A stretch of DNA of 64,000 bases. Source: Polyangiales bacterium. Its GTDB lineage: Bacteria; Myxococcota_A; Polyangia; Polyangiales; Ga0077539. Of this stretch, positions 4,568 to 42,562 are shown one piece after another (the first letter of the stretch is position 1; every line of letters starts with the position of its first letter). The position numbers and the translations under genes are program-made. Location of the stretch: NCBI GenBank assembly GCA_044229975.1, contig JBGARZ010000001.1, positions 128,001 to 192,000 on the forward strand, read 5' to 3'. The notes below the pieces were generated by a model. That model searched no databases and was not told the origin of the DNA. It was given only the letters and a program-made list of their open reading frames with translations.

Positions 4568-5356
4568 GTGAGAAAGCAGCGACCCATGACGGCAGACGAC
4601 TACCTTCGTCTGGCGCTGCATACCGGGTCACCCGACGCCGCCGCCGTCTACGCCGAGAAGGGGCTCCGCTTCGCCTCCGACCGCGTCGACGCCGAGACCC
4701 GCGTCCTCCTGCTCCGAGAGATCTACCGTTCGCACCTCTACGCCCGCCGCGTTCGCTCGGCCCACGCCGTCGCCCGCAAGATGGTGCGCCTCGGGGTCGC
4801 CCAGGAGATCGCCCACGTCGACCTCGGCCGGGCCTGCCTCGCCCTCGGCTGGTGGCTCCGCGCCGCCCAGGCCTACCGCATCGCCGCCCGCAACGCGCCG
4901 GCCTCGCGCCGCGCGCTCCATTGGTTCTCGGTGGGCATCGCCCTCCACCACGCCAACGAGACCGACGAGGCCCTCAGCGCCCTCGACCGCGCCGTCCGCT
5001 GGTCGCTCACCACCCGCGCCCTCCACCGCGCCTACGCCGCCCTCGTGCGCCTCGACGCCGGAGAGCTCCCCGCCGACATCGAAGACTTCAAGGACCTCGT
5101 CGCCGAGCTCGAGTCCGCCCGCTGCGGTGAGGGCTTCGGCCGCTACGTGCTCGGCCTGCTCTACGCCGCGTGCGGCGAGCGGCGCAGCGCCACCCGTCAC
5201 CTGGTGATCTTCGTCCGGCGCAACCAGCACGACCCGATGCGCGCCGTGACCCTGGCCCACGAGCTTCGGCGCGCGCGCCTCTGCCTCCGGTCGCTCCGCA
5301 AGACATCGCAGAGCCCGTCGACGCCGCCCATGAGCACCCCGACGCCCGTCGGATGA
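4568..5356 (+). CDS. Hypothetical TPR-like helical protein
   Basis: TPR-like helices (AHVDLGRACLALG..AAQAYRIA; YVLGLLYAACGE). Overlaps pilD start (ATGA). Start at 4568 or 4586. Confidence 0.7.
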   Translation: MRKQRPMTADDYLRLALHTGSPDAAAVYAEKGLRFASDRVDAETRVLLLREIYRSHLYARRVRSAHAVARKMVRLGVAQEIAHVDLGRACLALGWWLRAAQAYRIAARNAPASRRALHWFSVGIALHHANETDEALSALDRAVRWSLTTRALHRAYAALVRLDAGELPADIEDFKDLVAELESARCGEGFGRYVLGLLYAACGERRSATRHLVIFVRRNQHDPMRAVTLAHELRRARLCLRSLRKTSQSPSTPPMSTPTPVG

Positions 5357-6330
5357 CCGCGCTCGACTTCCCGACCTGGTTCTTTCGGGTCTTCGCGTTC
5401 GCCTTCGGCGCTGCCTGGGGGAGCTTCGCCAACGTGGTCATCTACCGCTGGCCGCTCGGCCTCTCGGTGGTGAGCCCGGCCTCCCGCTGCCCGCACTGCG
5501 AGAAGCCCGTCCGCGCCTACGACAACGTGCCCATCTTCGCGTGGTTCTGGCTGGGCGGAAAATGCCGCGACTGCAAGGCGCCGTTCTCGCCGCGCTACGC
5601 CCTCGTCGAGGCCATGTACGCGGTGTCCGCGCTCGCCCTCGTCGAGCTGCTCCTGCGTACGCAGGGCGACCAGGCGCTGCCCACGTTCTTCGCGCTCTTC
5701 TTCGTGCGCTTCGCCTTCGTGTGGGGGCTGCTGACGGCGTCGTTCATCGACCTCGACACCATGCTCCTGCCAACCTTCATCACCCGCGGTGGCACCGTGC
5801 TGGGCATCGCCGCCAGCGTGATGCTCCCGGGCATCGGGTGGAAGGCTTCCCTTACCGGGGCGGCGCTGGGCTACGCGATCCCGTTCGCGTTTCACTTCGT
5901 GTGGGAGAAGTTCTTGAAGCGCCCAGGGATGGGCCTCGGCGACGCCGAGCTGCTCGCCATGGTGGGCGCCCTCCTCGGCTACCACGGCGTGCTCTTCGCG
6001 CTCTTCGCGGGGTCGCTCCAGGGCATCGTCGCGACCCTGCTGTCCAAGGCCACCGGCTGGAAGCTCACCCCCGACATCTCCGCCGACTACTGGGAGGATG
6101 ACGACGAGGACGACGACGCGAAGGACGGCGAGAAGAAGGCAGAGCCCGCCGCGACGACCGAGAGCACTGAGCCGACCGCAGAGCCCGCAAAGGTCGACCC
6201 CAACGAGGGGCAACCGCTCATGCGAACGATGCTCCCGTTCGGGCCCTTTCTCGCCCTCGGCGGCATCGAGTACCTGCTCGGCGGCGACCAGCTTTTACGC
6301 GCCTACCTCACGATGCTCCAGGGACGCTGA
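5353..6330 (+). CDS. pilD: Prepilin peptidase / N-methyltransferase
   Basis: GSFANVVIYRWP; two CxxC (CPHC, CRDC); FIDLD; GMGLGD; C-terminal PFGPFLA preceded by an acidic insertion. Confidence 0.95.
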   Translation: MTALDFPTWFFRVFAFAFGAAWGSFANVVIYRWPLGLSVVSPASRCPHCEKPVRAYDNVPIFAWFWLGGKCRDCKAPFSPRYALVEAMYAVSALALVELLLRTQGDQALPTFFALFFVRFAFVWGLLTASFIDLDTMLLPTFITRGGTVLGIAASVMLPGIGWKASLTGAALGYAIPFAFHFVWEKFLKRPGMGLGDAELLAMVGALLGYHGVLFALFAGSLQGIVATLLSKATGWKLTPDISADYWEDDDEDDDAKDGEKKAEPAATTESTEPTAEPAKVDPNEGQPLMRTMLPFGPFLALGGIEYLLGGDQLLRAYLTMLQGR

Positions 6331-36983: not shown

Positions 36984-38264
36984 ATGGGACGATCGTGGCT
37001 CTTCCTTCTGCCGGTAATGGTTGGGGCGTGCGCGCCCGAGGAGATCTCGGACACTGTCGTCCGTGACGCGGGCCCGCGGGTCGACGCGCGCGCCACCGAT
37101 CGACCCGTGGTGCGTGACACCGGGCCCGTGCGCGACACCGGTCCGGCCCGGGACACGGGGCCCGTGCGCGACACCGGGATGACCACCAACCCGACGGACG
37201 GGGGCGGCACGACGGGGCGACGCGAGGACTGCACGACGCCCTTCGACGACGACGGCGATGGCGTCGCCAACGAGGACTGCGCCTGCACACCGGGCATGGA
37301 ACAGATGTGCTTCGAGCGCCCCGAAGACGCCTTCCGGGGAATGTGCCGCATGGGGCGGCAGCGCTGCGAGGGCGAAGGCGAGTTCGGGACGTGGTCGGCG
37401 TGCGGCGGGTCGTGGCTGCCCATCGCCGAGGCCATGAACCAGTGCGAGATCGCGCAGCCGCTCATGGGGATGACCGCGACGCGCGCGCCGGTCGACATCC
37501 TGCTCTTCGTCGACACCTCCGGGTCGATGGCCGAGGAGACCGCGGCGGTCAACGAGAACATGAACCGCTTCGCCATGATCATGGGCGCGAGCGGCCTCGA
37601 CTACCGGGTCATCATGGTGGCCCGACGCGGCACCGCGCGCCTCCAGGTGTGCATCCCCGCGCCGCTCGGTGGAGCGTCGTGCGCCGACGGTCCACGGCTG
37701 CGGCATCTCAACGTCACCGTCGACAGCGTCAACGGCCTCCGCCAGTGGATCGCGACGCAGCCCATGTGGCAGTCGTTCACGCGCACCGACGCGTTGAAGT
37801 TCTTCGTGGCCGTCACGGATGATGAGAGCTCGATGAGTGCGGACGAGTTCAACACCACGGTCACGCGGTGGCCGGGGTTCTCGTCGTATGTGTTCCACTC
37901 CATCGTGGGGTACGAGTCGCGCGCGGACTGCCCGACGCTCGCGCGCCGCGGCGGCGTGTACCTCACGCTCACCTCGCGCACCCGCGGTATGGCCGCGCGC
38001 GTGTGCAGCACCGACTGGACGGCGATCTTCACCTCCTTCGCGCGCGACATCACCAGCCGCGCCAACGCATGGATCGTCGACGCCGACGCGCGGCCCGACA
38101 CGGTGCAGGTGTGGTTCGTCGCGCCCGACGGCACCCGGACGCAGCTCACGACGGGGTGGAGCTACGACGCCGCCACGCGACGGCTCACCATCGACTCGGC
38201 GCGCCTGCCGCCCGAAGGACACCGCGTCGAGGTGCTGTACCGCACCAACGCCTCGTCGCCGTAG
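36984..38264 (+). CDS. vWA-domain lipoprotein (CglB-like architecture)
   Basis: Lipobox VGAC; RDTGP repeats; DDDGDG..NE.C motif; MIDAS VDILLFVDTSGSM and VTDDE. Confidence 0.82.
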   Translation: MGRSWLFLLPVMVGACAPEEISDTVVRDAGPRVDARATDRPVVRDTGPVRDTGPARDTGPVRDTGMTTNPTDGGGTTGRREDCTTPFDDDGDGVANEDCACTPGMEQMCFERPEDAFRGMCRMGRQRCEGEGEFGTWSACGGSWLPIAEAMNQCEIAQPLMGMTATRAPVDILLFVDTSGSMAEETAAVNENMNRFAMIMGASGLDYRVIMVARRGTARLQVCIPAPLGGASCADGPRLRHLNVTVDSVNGLRQWIATQPMWQSFTRTDALKFFVAVTDDESSMSADEFNTTVTRWPGFSSYVFHSIVGYESRADCPTLARRGGVYLTLTSRTRGMAARVCSTDWTAIFTSFARDITSRANAWIVDADARPDTVQVWFVAPDGTRTQLTTGWSYDAATRRLTIDSARLPPEGHRVEVLYRTNASSP

Positions 38265-38276
38265 CGGGGGGAAGGG

Positions 38277-38543
38277 TCAGGTCGCGCGGTCGTCGGCGAG
38301 CCACGCGCCCAGCGCCGGGGCGTCGAGGTCCATCACGACGTCGCCGACGCGCTCGGGACCCAGCGCCCGCAACCGATCGCGCAGCCGCGCCTGCTCGACC
38401 TCACCGAGAGCGCGCCCGAGCTTTCGCTCGAACTGGTGCGACACCAACGCGACCCCGCGGGCCTCTCCGCGGGCCTCTCCGCGGGCCTCTCCCTTCTGGA
38501 AGGGCCACGACCGTTCGATCAATCCTTCGTCGACGATGCCCAT
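38277..38543 (-). CDS. Predicted nested in-frame small protein (RpnS-like antitoxin, 88 aa)
   Basis: Internal GGGAG-N6-ATG, in frame, just before the GEAR repeats. Confidence 0.55.
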   Translation of the reverse strand: MGIVDEGLIERSWPFQKGEARGEARGEARGVALVSHQFERKLGRALGEVEQARLRDRLRALGPERVGDVVMDLDAPALGAWLADDRAT

Positions 38544-39179
38544 GAGCCACTCCCGGATGTTGCGCTTCGCAGGCTCCGATTCTGCCACGACGGTCATCGC
38601 GGCGACCACCTCCACCAGCTCGTCGCGGCTCTGCGCCGCGGCCCGTGCGGCCGCCAGGGCCAGCGGCAGCGTCTCGGGCGACGCGTCCCTTACCAGCGGC
38701 GCAAACGCCAACCACAGCAGGCTCCCGCGCGCCACGAGCTCGGCCACCGTGCATTGGTACACCGGGTCGATGCGAAACCGCGCTCCACTGAAGCGCTCCT
38801 CCCGCGGCGACACGCGGAAGCGCCCCCGCTCGGGCCACGGCGCCTCTCGGCCGGAGAGCAACACGACCGTGCTCACGATCGGCGCACGATGGACTGGCCG
38901 GCGCGGGTCGCGCTGCGCCATCGCCAGCAGCGCCTGGTACTCGTAGATCCGGTAGGGCAGGCCCCTCTCCCACGCCCACTGCCACTCGACGTGCAGCCAG
39001 CGGCGGCGCCCGCCCACGAGCACTGACAGCACGCGGTCGAGGCGACGCTCCACGGCTGCGACTTGCGTCTCCTGCCACGCCTCCACCTCGAACTCCGCGG
39101 CGGGCCCGAGCACCCCGCGCGCATACGCCTCGGGCATCCGTTGCGCGACGTGGCGAAGCGTGATGTCGAGATCCCCCAT
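38277..39179 (-). CDS. Rpn-family (PD-(D/E)xK, YhgA-like) nuclease with DUF4351-like C-terminus
   Basis: Strong SD GAGGAGG; D.TLR, ERRLDRV, LHVEWQ and RIYEY; GEAR repeats; C-terminal FERKLG...L.AWL. Confidence 0.8.
   Translation of the reverse strand: MGDLDITLRHVAQRMPEAYARGVLGPAAEFEVEAWQETQVAAVERRLDRVLSVLVGGRRRWLHVEWQWAWERGLPYRIYEYQALLAMAQRDPRRPVHRAPIVSTVVLLSGREAPWPERGRFRVSPREERFSGARFRIDPVYQCTVAELVARGSLLWLAFAPLVRDASPETLPLALAAARAAAQSRDELVEVVAAMTVVAESEPAKRNIREWLMGIVDEGLIERSWPFQKGEARGEARGEARGVALVSHQFERKLGRALGEVEQARLRDRLRALGPERVGDVVMDLDAPALGAWLADDRAT
38457..38492 (-). repeat. 12-bp perfect tandem repeat x3 (GEAR)
   Basis: gcgggcctctcc x3 on the + strand. Confidence 0.9.
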
Positions 39180-39278
39180 CGCCCTCCTCCTCGTGACGAA
39201 CACCGTCGTCGCACGCGACCCCGGACGGGTCAACGGTCGCGTCGAGGCGCTAACGCCTCGTCGCCGTAGCCGCGGCCC

Positions 39279-40439
39279 TCAGCGCGGCGCGGGCTCTTGC
39301 GCCGACGAGAGATCCACCGCGGTCGGTCGGCTCTCGCCGTTGATCTGTCCCCAGCAGCGCACCGCACCCGCCACATCGCGCACGCAGGTCGACCCGCCGC
39401 CGCCGGCCGGCTCGCCGCCGCCCACCGCTACCTCCACGGCGCCGATCACGTCCCGCACCACCACCGGGGTCGCGGAGTCGTCCAGCGCTTCACGCGTTCG
39501 ACCGAGCTGGCCCGATGCGTTGGCGCCCCAGCACGAGACCCTCCCGCCGCTGGTCAGCGCGCACGAGTGGTACTCTCCGACCGCGAGGCGCAGCGCGTTG
39601 GCGACGCCTCGCAGCGGCGTCGGGCGGTAGCTGGCGGAGCCCTCGCCGCCCCAGCACCACACGCGCGAACCCGCCCGCGCGCAGCTCGGCGCGAACTGGC
39701 TCGTCCCGACCTCGTCGACGCCCGCGAGTCCGGCGAGACGGATGGGCGGCACGTTGCTCTCGCTCACCCCCGCGTCGCCGGGGAGCTGATGAAACCCGGC
39801 GGTGCCCCAGCACGAGACGCTCCCGTCGACGTGCACCGCACACGAAATGGTGCCGTGCCCCAACGCGCGGACGGGCGCAGGGAGCGCGACCTCGCGGAGC
39901 GCCGAGGGCTCGGTGCCCTCCCAGCACCACACCGACCCGTTGGTCTTCCGAACGCAGTCCCAGGCGACCTCCGCCACGTCGGTCGCCTCGACGCCACCGG
40001 TGCGCAGGGTCTCGTCCCAGCATCGCAGCTCGCCGCTCCGACGACGCGCGCACCAGCGGGCCACGTCGCCCGCGACCTCCACCGCGTCGACGAGGCCCAC
40101 GACCAGCGCTGGCGCGGCGTGCGCGCGGTTGTCGTCGTTGTCCTCCATCCCGACGCCCCAGCACACCACGCGACCGTCGACACGCAACGCGCAGGCGCGG
40201 TTGTGGCCGAGGGCGATCTGCGCGACGGGCGAGGAGGGCGCCACGCCACCGACCGGCGGCAGTCCCGGCGGCGCGGGAGCGACGGCAGCGACATCGAGCG
40301 ACGGCGTCCCGGCGTCCACCACCGGCATCGGCGGGGTCACCGCGACGGTCGGCGGCGGCAGGGGCGCGGGCGGGCGGCATCCGGCGAGCGCGAGGAGAGC
40401 GGGCAGGACGCAGTGATGGAGGGTCAGTCGCGGCAGCAC
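39279..40439 (-). CDS. RCC1/BLIP-II repeat lipoprotein
   Basis: Lipobox LAGC; repeated G..H.CA...G.V.CWG; GTG start preceded by TATCGT-N6. Confidence 0.88.
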   Translation of the reverse strand: MLPRLTLHHCVLPALLALAGCRPPAPLPPPTVAVTPPMPVVDAGTPSLDVAAVAPAPPGLPPVGGVAPSSPVAQIALGHNRACALRVDGRVVCWGVGMEDNDDNRAHAAPALVVGLVDAVEVAGDVARWCARRRSGELRCWDETLRTGGVEATDVAEVAWDCVRKTNGSVWCWEGTEPSALREVALPAPVRALGHGTISCAVHVDGSVSCWGTAGFHQLPGDAGVSESNVPPIRLAGLAGVDEVGTSQFAPSCARAGSRVWCWGGEGSASYRPTPLRGVANALRLAVGEYHSCALTSGGRVSCWGANASGQLGRTREALDDSATPVVVRDVIGAVEVAVGGGEPAGGGGSTCVRDVAGAVRCWGQINGESRPTAVDLSSAQEPAPR

Positions 40440-40551
40440 CTCGCCACGATACGCCCGATGGTATCGGCGCCGCCGATTCCCTGCCGCTACGAGGTCGGAC
40501 GCACGAGCCCGGCGCCTACCTCGCGTTGTTCAGGAACGACTGGCCGCGGAG

Positions 40552-41868
40552 TCAGTTGATGCGGACAGCGTCGATCGTCCAGCCGGGGTTCTGGAGGCGC
40601 CAAACGCTAGCGCCGCGGGCCTGGAAGCGGACGCGGACCCGCGCCGTGAGGCACGACGGCGGGAGCGTGATGGACTGCGCCGTGATCGCGAAGGCGCGCG
40701 TGGAGTTGTATCCGCCGGAGCAGTAGGTGGTCGCACACTGGGACTGTCGCGCGGGCCAGGGGTTCGGCGTCAGGTTGGTCCACGCGGCGCCGCCGTCCCC
40801 CGAACACTGCGGCGAGAGGCGCTCGGACTTGTCGACCGACGAGTCGTACGATGGGTTGTCGTCGAGGCGCACCGTGAACGTGAGGAGCGCCGCACTGCAG
40901 CCAGAGAGGTCGGTGTCCGCGCCGCTGGTGAGGTTCTGCGTGTATGTCGACGCGAACCGCGTGGTGGAGCCGGCGACCACGTTGCCCGAGCCGTGTCGCC
41001 AGAGGCTGTCGAAGGTCCAGCCGTCGGTCCCTGTGTCGAAGAGTCCGAGCGCGAGCGCCGTGGGACAGGTACGGTGACTGACGTCGGACGTACCAACGTC
41101 CACCGGACCAGCGTCGGGAACGCCGACCTCGTTCACCTCGCTATCGACCCCCGTGTCCGCGGTCCCAGCGTCGATCGCGCCGGCGTCACCTGACACGTCG
41201 ATGACCGCCACGACGTCCATCGGTCCCGACACGTCCGCGCTCACGCCAACGTCGACCGTGCCATCGGCCAGGGCGTCGCGTGCGACGTCCGTCGCTTCTG
41301 CATCGCTGCCCGCCACGTCCGAGCTGCCGTCGGACCCGACCGCTCCTGCATCCCCGCCAACGCTCCCCTGCGCGGACGGAACCACCGTCGCGCTCACACA
41401 ATCCCCACTGCTGGGCTCGCACCGCTGCGATGGCAGGCATCGGTTGGCCAGACACGCCGTCGCGAGCACCAGTTGCAGGTCGAGCGTCGCCTCGTCCACG
41501 AACTGAACGACCGCGCGCTGCGACACCACCGCGTCGGCGCGCGTGCAGGTCGTCCCGGCGCAGCCGAGCGCCTCGATCCACACGGGCGTCGGGTCGTTGG
41601 CGCCACGGGACGCGGTCGGCAGGAGACCGACGCGGAAGGGGAGCGCCGTGAGCCCGCCCGTCGTCCCCAGCGGGACCAACCGCAGGCTGCGCGACGGGCC
41701 GTTGGCGTCGCCGGTTCGCACCTCCACCGAGAGCGTCTGGATCTGTTGTCCTGGCCCCCACGGAACCTGCGACGTGACCGTGGCGACGATCTCCGTGCGC
41801 GGTCGGGTGCAGGCGACGCCCCACGCCACCATCGCCACCCCAGCAGCGCGAAGGAGAGGGCTTTTCAC
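40552..41868 (-). CDS. Hypothetical lipoprotein (N-terminal myxobacterial beta domain, acidic linker, C-terminal jelly-roll-like domain)
   Basis: GTG start preceded by TG-A-TAGCGT-N7; lipobox GVAC; D/A/G/V linker; ends VRVRFQ..GWTIDAVRI. Confidence 0.72.
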   Translation of the reverse strand: MKSPLLRAAGVAMVAWGVACTRPRTEIVATVTSQVPWGPGQQIQTLSVEVRTGDANGPSRSLRLVPLGTTGGLTALPFRVGLLPTASRGANDPTPVWIEALGCAGTTCTRADAVVSQRAVVQFVDEATLDLQLVLATACLANRCLPSQRCEPSSGDCVSATVVPSAQGSVGGDAGAVGSDGSSDVAGSDAEATDVARDALADGTVDVGVSADVSGPMDVVAVIDVSGDAGAIDAGTADTGVDSEVNEVGVPDAGPVDVGTSDVSHRTCPTALALGLFDTGTDGWTFDSLWRHGSGNVVAGSTTRFASTYTQNLTSGADTDLSGCSAALLTFTVRLDDNPSYDSSVDKSERLSPQCSGDGGAAWTNLTPNPWPARQSQCATTYCSGGYNSTRAFAITAQSITLPPSCLTARVRVRFQARGASVWRLQNPGWTIDAVRIN

Positions 41869-42040
41869 CGGGCAGACGCTATCACGGGCCTGGGAGCAAT
41901 CCGCAGACGGACCCAGACAGCGTGGGGGCGCGGTGCCGCTGTTGGTCCCGCCGCTGCTGTCAACGCGCCAGCTCGCCCCATCGACGTGGACGTACACCCG
42001 CGGGGAGGCGACGAGCAGAGCGTCGCCGCGTGGACGCCCG

Positions 42041-42562
42041 CTACGACGTCGGACGCGTACGCCCCGCGACGGGCGGACCCGACGGTGCGCGCTGGAGCCG
42101 CGCCGAAGTGACGCGCGCGTTGACCGTGAGCGTGAAGGTGCCCTCGCTGTCGGTGTCGTAGCCGTCGACGAAGATGAACCAGGTTCCCGCGGTGAGGTCG
42201 AGGTCGAGCCCGGCGTGGCGGGCGTCTTCGCGGTCGTCGTTGCAGGCGAGCTCGGACACCTCGTCAGCGCAGTCGCCGCGCACGTACAGCGCGACGTCGT
42301 AGTCGGCCGCCACGCGGAGCGAGACGTGGGCGGGCTGGTCGAGGTGCAGCGAGTACACGCGCTCGCCGGAGAGGGCCTGCCGCGCGCACGAGGCGTGGGC
42401 GCGGTCGGCGACGCCGACGGTGGTGCCGCGGACGGTGGTGTTGTCGAGGAGCGACGTCACCTGCGAGCACGCCCCACGCGACGACGGCTGCGAGGCGACG
42501 CCCGAGGGGACGGCCAGCAGCGAGGCGCACAGAAGGAGGAGTGGGGCGCGGGACAAGCGCAT
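42041..42562 (-). CDS. Secreted PPC (pre-peptidase C-terminal)-like domain protein
   Basis: Signal peptide; GERVYSL, YDVALYVR..C....ELACNDD and L.AGTWFIFVDGY. Confidence 0.8.
   Translation of the reverse strand: MRLSRAPLLLLCASLLAVPSGVASQPSSRGACSQVTSLLDNTTVRGTTVGVADRAHASCARQALSGERVYSLHLDQPAHVSLRVAADYDVALYVRGDCADEVSELACNDDREDARHAGLDLDLTAGTWFIFVDGYDTDSEGTFTLTVNARVTSARLQRAPSGPPVAGRTRPTS

Follow-up and report, generated by a model that had tools for sequence, protein, structure and literature searches.

Organization of the locus

The gene examined here lies on the minus strand of the window (the whole stretch of DNA analysed, 64,000 nucleotides), where an open reading frame (ORF) of 300 aa extends from position 39179 to 38277 and encodes a protein of 33.8 kDa. 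The protein is RpnL-like, with a predicted PD-(D/E)XK nuclease head, a helical middle part and a repeat-bearing tail. The ORF is preceded by a strong Shine-Dalgarno (SD) sequence of its own, GAGGAGGAGG (39183–39192, minus strand; pairing energy −11.8). ORFs overlapping it in other frames were taken as shadows of GC-rich DNA.

In seven of the eight congeners compared, the conserved gene downstream of the query gene directly abuts the orthologue of 42041–42562, and the eighth locus stops short of the junction. Since the flanking genes adjoin each other in the seven congeners, a segment of ∼3.8 kb (38266–42035, the right end being approximate) represents an insertion in the lineage of the query; it contains the long ORF, an RCC1-repeat lipoprotein-like gene and a lipoprotein-like gene of 481 aa. 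The initial annotation had placed the query gene among variable surface-protein genes, which describes well the two upstream, lipoprotein-like genes inserted together with it but not the downstream gene, which is conserved in the genus. Judging from these comparisons, the query gene appears to be patchy and recently inserted. Within the 481-aa lipoprotein-like gene, the 3′ portion (40550–41120) has matches of 92% and 75% elsewhere in the genome (contigs C15 and C38), which suggests domain shuffling.

Two copies of a 19-bp direct repeat (38247–38265 and 39252–39270) bracket the long ORF alone. The first copy forms the 3′ end, with the stop codon, of the neighbouring conserved gene, so that the last codons of this gene are duplicated on the other side of the long ORF. 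The 19-mer occurs exactly twice in the genome and is therefore not a REP-like repeat; repeats of at least 18 bp were found in 4 of 1000 control windows. The duplication suggests that the query gene was inserted by duplication or recombination. Target-site duplication as a trait of the whole family was rejected: among 45 loci, repeats longer than 13 bp were found only at the query locus and at locus L079, where the repeat (29 bp) is located far from the gene ends. No IS-type inverted repeats were found at the tested loci.

Relationship to Rpn nucleases

The query protein has no matches among the Pfam, NCBIfam and PADLOC models, and PF04754 has no match anywhere in the genome. Neither PF04754 nor TIGR01784 matches the query above the family HMM cut-off; TIGR01784 is matched by 13 of 56 homologues at E ≤ 0.1, the matched stretch possibly being the repeat tail. 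Direct BLASTP comparison with RpnA was weak (E = 0.012). Profile–profile alignment with hhalign (56 rows of the query family against 19 rows of RpnA and PF04754 proteins; E-values are pairwise) gave 94.9% with E = 4.5e-8 over 209 columns at 13% identity, and 85.0% with E = 6.3e-6 for the head alone. In this alignment D48 (39036–39038), E65-x-Q67 (38979–38987) and R77 (38949–38951), all on the minus strand, correspond to D63, E82-x-Q84 and R94 of RpnA; D5 (39165–39167, minus strand) lies outside the aligned span and was matched to RpnA D11 by eye from the N-terminal motif. The RpnA residues D11, D63, E82, Q84 and R94 are those mutated in PMC5350276. Among the 105 rows of the family alignment, D5 is kept in 102 and D48, E65 and R77 in 103 each, and Q67 in 55 only.

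The structure model of the query (pLDDT 93.7) has an alpha/beta head, a helical middle and a tail composed of a long helix (residues 225–254), which carries the repeats, followed by three short helices. In a fold search the head was aligned to the structures 6hz4, 2vld, 2okf and 8ps4 with Z-scores of 5.0–5.8 (all below 8) and rmsd values of 3.5–4.5 over 101–129 residues, that is, weakly. We take these four, which include a chain named McrC, to be PD-(D/E)XK-fold structures, and the matches are consistent with, but not decisive for, such a fold of the predicted head. A Foldseek search with the query model returned no matches at E ≤ 0.001, the RpnAS entry 7TH0 was absent from the matches in both fold searches, and a sequence search of the PDB with the query gave no matches. 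Look-alikes of the query in the Atlas at 0.96 include clusters with PF04754+PF14261 and with PF11103+PF14261. Matches to FliH and Yae1_N among the homologues were taken as repeat artefacts.

Since the profile alignment and the catalytic residues match and the family HMMs do not, the query protein is, on the evidence of its sequence, Rpn-like but outside the curated families. The Rpn-likeness stated in the initial annotation is borne out by the profile alignment and the catalytic residues and finds no support in the HMMs of Pfam, NCBIfam and PADLOC; what had been called a divergent myxobacterial member is a divergent RpnL/RpnS-like variant rather than a formal member of the family. By analogy, our verdict is that the query would work like RpnL/RpnS, as a variant divergent enough to fail family HMM membership. 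A DUF4351-like tail had also been claimed and has to be given up: neither the protein nor its 88-aa tail matches Pfam, and PF14261 (DUF4351) is weakly matched by only two of the 56 homologues (best E = 0.0016).

Relatives of the query protein comprise 531 representatives at E ≤ 0.001. When 30 other genomes belonging to the same family were compared with 30 from outside it, matches, many of them tail-only, were present in 28 of the former and one of the latter, and 14 of the 30 same-family genomes have a match at E ≤ 1e-40; the named relatives come from Polyangiales, Polyangiaceae and other Myxococcota. The genome of the query itself contains a frameshifted paralogue that is 75% identical, the frameshift reflecting either gene decay or an assembly error. 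In one MAG, ten copies are found on two contigs (L007–L014, L019 and L029), and L029:5001–5300 carries an in-frame deletion which brings codons 1–42 directly up to the tail. Two nearby frameshifted copies (L020:3066–3934 and 5002–5868, in G021:C48) lie beside a RlaP-family gene pair. A literature search, for which most subscription papers were beyond reach, found neither a paper on myxobacterial Rpn-like genes nor a myxobacterial promoter map. In PMC10400941, membership among rpn genes was defined by COG5464 assignment; Dataset S1 of that paper may contain members of the query's family.

Candidate internal start at the head–tail junction

On the minus strand of the long ORF, the sequence GGGAG (38554–38550) is followed after six bases by an in-frame ATG (38543–38541), which is codon 213. 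Translation from this codon would yield a protein of 88 aa and 9.7 kDa (38277–38543, minus strand), an RpnS-like antitoxin candidate. Both the SD 6 nt upstream of the in-frame ATG and the 88-aa product, as proposed initially, are confirmed in the sequence. Of the 2028 internal ATGs that likely genes on this contig contain, 1.9% have an SD pairing energy as strong as that at M213 (−7.0); when the six codons concerned are recoded synonymously, an equally good SD arises in 27% of cases (P = 0.27). Taken singly, the site is therefore only suggestive, and it is the family comparison that carries weight. Predicted mRNA accessibility does not separate the possible starts (unpaired 0.38 at M213, 0.33 at M195 and 0.47 at M1).

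For this comparison 53 homologous genes were used, corresponding to 59 near-full-length frames minus five identical ones and minus L029 with its internal deletion. All 53 possess an in-frame ATG within an 11-codon zone at the head–tail junction, where a Met would be expected by chance in 20% of such windows. Taking the best ATG per gene, the SD energy at the junction is −6 or lower in 48 of the 53 genes, compared with 18 of the 242 internal ATGs elsewhere in the genes, although these counts are not independent, since the homologues are related. Among the 30 genes less than 70% identical to each other, an SD of −5 or lower is found at the junction in 26, versus 10 of 139 other ATGs. The column of M195 (38595–38597, minus strand) is as well conserved as the start (44 of 53 genes), yet an SD of −5 or lower accompanies it in only 3 of 23 cases among genes less than 70% identical. 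The excess of junction SD strength over synonymous recodings is modest (−7.75 versus −6.78 ± 0.41; 3 of 300 resamples), and most of this strength derives from Glu/Lys/Arg codons.

The usual position of the junction start is occupied in the query by codon 222: this column is ATG in 45 of the 53 homologues and GAA in the query, and in the hhalign alignment it coincides to within one residue with M244 of RpnA. The latter is a proven internal start (PMC10400941) and shares the same geometry (GGAG, 6 nt, ATG). All eight genes lacking the residue-222 ATG have an ATG seven to nine codons upstream, in seven cases with an SD of −6 or lower. In the 105 proteins, the downstream Met is present in 64, the upstream Met in 21, both in 18 and neither in two, one of which is truncated. 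In a quick tree of the heads only, built without bootstrap or outgroup, 17 upstream-Met rows including the query cluster together (SH-aLRT 90); a smaller tree of the same kind, made after the removal of redundant rows and of 11 rows that were truncated or had long branches, grouped 11 upstream-Met rows (SH-aLRT 87). We infer that the clade of the query lost the usual internal ATG and gained a replacement nine codons upstream (M213), the direction of the shift being read from the RpnA alignment because the quick trees carry neither bootstrap nor outgroup. Conservation of the internal SD and Met, named as a check in the initial annotation, is borne out, and its interpretation of the gene is supported to that extent, with the qualification that a junction SD and ATG are found family-wide and M213 itself only in the query's clade. 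At the family's usual start site in the query (38514–38528, minus strand), an SD-like GAAGGA (38523–38528, codons 218–219) is still seen; its rare GGA codon is kept in all six genes of the clade and the ATG is gone.

Candidate internal promoter

Third-position GC content, about 0.9 in general, drops to 0.33 in codons −16 and −15, counted from the internal ATG, and to 0.47 in codon −8. In many genes with the majority type of start the rare codons read TGGACT and, after a gap of 17 bases, CAnnnT, the end of which lies 17 bases upstream of the ATG; in other subgroups TATCCT or TG-n-TACGAT is found further upstream. Six genes, drawn from four sources and in three cases broken in frame, make up the query's clade, and only 6 of its 207 codon columns have an A/T-ending codon in at least five genes. 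Two of these columns are adjacent (GCA GAA, codons 199–200), and one more is that of GGA 219 in the former SD. The adjacent pair belongs to the sequence TG-n-CAGAAT (38587–38579, minus strand), located 35 bases before the ATG at 38543, conserved in all six genes and resembling a promoter of the extended −10 type.

Using a simple sigma-70 score, with the usual consensus, weights of our own and a design devised after seeing the data, the clade mean was 9.94 versus 5.28 ± 0.49 for synonymous recodings; none of 500 recodings of the query scored as high as the query itself, and six control windows gave z-values from −1.8 to 1.6. A strict promoter scan found nothing. Genome-wide, sigma-70-type promoters are apparent in TTGAC-17-19-YAnnnT (14 versus 1.7) and TG-n-TAnnnT (31 versus 15), and TG-n-CAnnnT shows no enrichment in front of genes (43 versus 49 ± 5). 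We regard the element at 38587–38579 as a candidate internal promoter, though it might have a role in translation instead. As a promoter it would leave M195 out of the short transcript, whose first ATG would be M213. Interpretation of the GG...TTGC pattern upstream in the family as a sigma-54 promoter was discarded by eye, since the spacing is 7 and such promoters require 10. Internal transcription starts have been found in E. coli rpn genes (PMC10400941).

Tail repeats

The perfect 3 × 12-bp repeat reported in the initial annotation is indeed there: positions 38455–38492 (minus strand) contain three exact 12-bp copies and 2 further bp, encoding GEAR three times inside the helix 225–254. The first repeat begins 18 residues after M213, and in PMC10400941 the repeats of Rpn proteins are described as starting 8–20 residues after the internal Met. 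Repeat copy number in the query's clade and close relatives varies from one to four.

Predicted mechanism and alternatives

We consider it reasonably probable that the query is a gene-within-a-gene toxin–antitoxin pair like that of E. coli Rpn, in which a predicted DNA nuclease would be held by an 88-residue C-terminal blocker translated from 38543, most likely in the service of anti-phage defence. The extended −10 promoter would give rise to a separate short transcript with its 5′ end near 38572, supplying the short protein in excess; the latter would bind the long form by way of the repeat helix common to both, the length of which would set specificity, and would block the predicted nuclease. 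Stress or infection would then lead to release, and the nuclease would cut DNA. Synthesis of the short protein from M213 seems highly probable from the sequence comparisons; toxin–antitoxin behaviour of the long and short forms, judged by analogy, is likely, and the anti-phage role of the query gene, judged likewise, is evenly balanced.

A single protein might be made, in which case conserved Glu/Arg/Lys codons would produce the SD look-alike incidentally and the Met would be structural. The weakness of the synonymous test of the SD speaks for this, as does the fact that, with the codons normal for GC-rich DNA, E-E or K-E is spelled GAGGAG or AAGGAG. However, a structural Met, once lost, would not need an SD-led replacement elsewhere, conserved M195 has no SD in the family, promoter-like elements in rare codons lie upstream of the start at clade-specific positions, and a junction SD and ATG occur in 18 of 22 ORFs of the genome that have the same tail but different heads; we therefore regard a one-protein gene as improbable. 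Still less credible is a short protein begun at another codon, either M195 (106 aa, 11.8 kDa) or the non-ATG codons TTG 220 or ATC 221. M195 has GGAGG upstream with an energy of −10.6 in a wide window, but the spacing is 11 nt, the energy falls to −6.1 in a narrower window, and the codon is located upstream of the candidate promoter. For the non-ATG codons, GGA 219 is kept in all six clade genes and codon 220 is TTG, CTG or ATG within the clade, but codons 220–221 sit 0–3 nt from the old SD, which is too close for usual initiation.

Neighbouring genes were scanned for defence-type functions (87 ORFs of 15 homologue loci plus four neighbours in the window). An initial crude set of 127 ORFs at 19 loci was reduced to these 87 by setting aside the Rpn-like genes, four whole loci and some of the ORFs at L015 and L016, and matches to kinases, ankyrins and ABC-ATPases were discounted. 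Both proteins might be made and act as a toxin–antitoxin pair that is not anti-phage, the gene being a selfish, addiction-like element or a nuclease of stress or recombination, spread by illegitimate recombination. We hold this to be unlikely, although it has points in its favour: the query's clade shows no clearly defence-type neighbour at any of its five loci, many scattered copies, some frameshifted or truncated, occur per genome, and the 19-bp duplication brackets the query copy; moreover, PMC10400941 leaves housekeeping roles open and has defence tested for RpnP2 only. Against it stand the defence-type neighbours at 5 of the 15 homologue loci (L007, L008 and L011 in one MAG, L021 and L026), a count made without a random-gene control, and the variation in repeat number from one to four among close relatives, as in Rpn, for which phage pressure has been proposed. 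At L026:4679–6402, SspB and SspC genes (phosphorothioation or BREX-like) are found ∼3 kb from a family member with a shifted start.

Comparison with known systems

The E. coli proteins RpnA–E and RpnP2 (COG5464, PF04754, TIGR01784; PMC10400941 and PMC5350276) are, like the query, about 300 aa long. Further shared features are the D...D...ExQ...R catalytic set, the junction SD and ATG with the same spacing, variable four-residue (12-bp) repeats in a long helix 8–20 residues after the internal Met, an internal promoter, in the query a candidate one, tail-only derivatives (compare RpnSs) and patchy gain and loss of single genes. The query differs in that its 88-aa tail is longer and has four predicted helices, whereas RpnAS is a three-helix protein of 5.4 kDa; its start is nine codons upstream of the RpnA-equivalent Met; its copy is flanked by a 19-bp duplication, none being reported for rpn genes in PMC10400941; and its locus has no defence neighbours, with no PF04754/TIGR01784 match and 13% profile identity. 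Among other Rpn-like models, DUF4351 (PF14261)/RpnSs, DUF2887 (PF11103) and PDDEXK_2 (PF12784), none matches the query or its tail, though one PDDEXK_2 gene with the same tail type is present in the query's genome.

If the proposed reading is true, the nested toxin–antitoxin design would reach a large myxobacterial family missed by Pfam, NCBIfam and PADLOC, and because the family is invisible to these collections, such genomes would hold many uncounted candidate defence genes. Loss of one ATG with gain of another and relocation of the promoter-like element would then be comparative evidence that the small protein is under selection, making the query's clade a tractable case of gene-within-a-gene evolution. 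The mechanism itself has already been described; the novelty would lie in the distant family and the relocated internal start.

Related tails in the same genome

Tails of this kind are present in 22 ORFs of the query's genome, 18 of which have a junction ATG with an SD of −6 or lower. The four without a strong junction SD and ATG are one PDDEXK_2 and three Uma2 genes, in this respect unlike the query. At least three Pfam-negative groups can be told apart among the heads, and two tail types are mixed across these groups. We tentatively entertain the idea, doubtful as it is at present, that the tail acts as a portable antitoxin module, carrying a promoter and a start of its own and swapped among several Pfam-invisible nuclease heads; there would then be ∼18 nested toxin–antitoxin genes per genome in these myxobacteria, which may cross-neutralise, and promoter and start could shift jointly along the coding sequence, as they would have done in the query's clade.

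Two more Pfam-negative groups of six ORFs each were noticed in G000 (L165–L184), with Rpn-type tails and a strong junction SD and ATG (energies down to −11.7), and are candidates for further nested toxin–antitoxin genes; examples are C4:5329–6678, C23:350020–351012 and C36:126461–127405 of that genome. Tail-only remnants that keep the SD and ATG are L055 (G016:C48) and G000 C23:459591–459881, and in G000 C19:531013–531498 a tail-only or head-truncated copy likewise retains them. Such copies are possibly stand-alone antitoxins or decayed genes.
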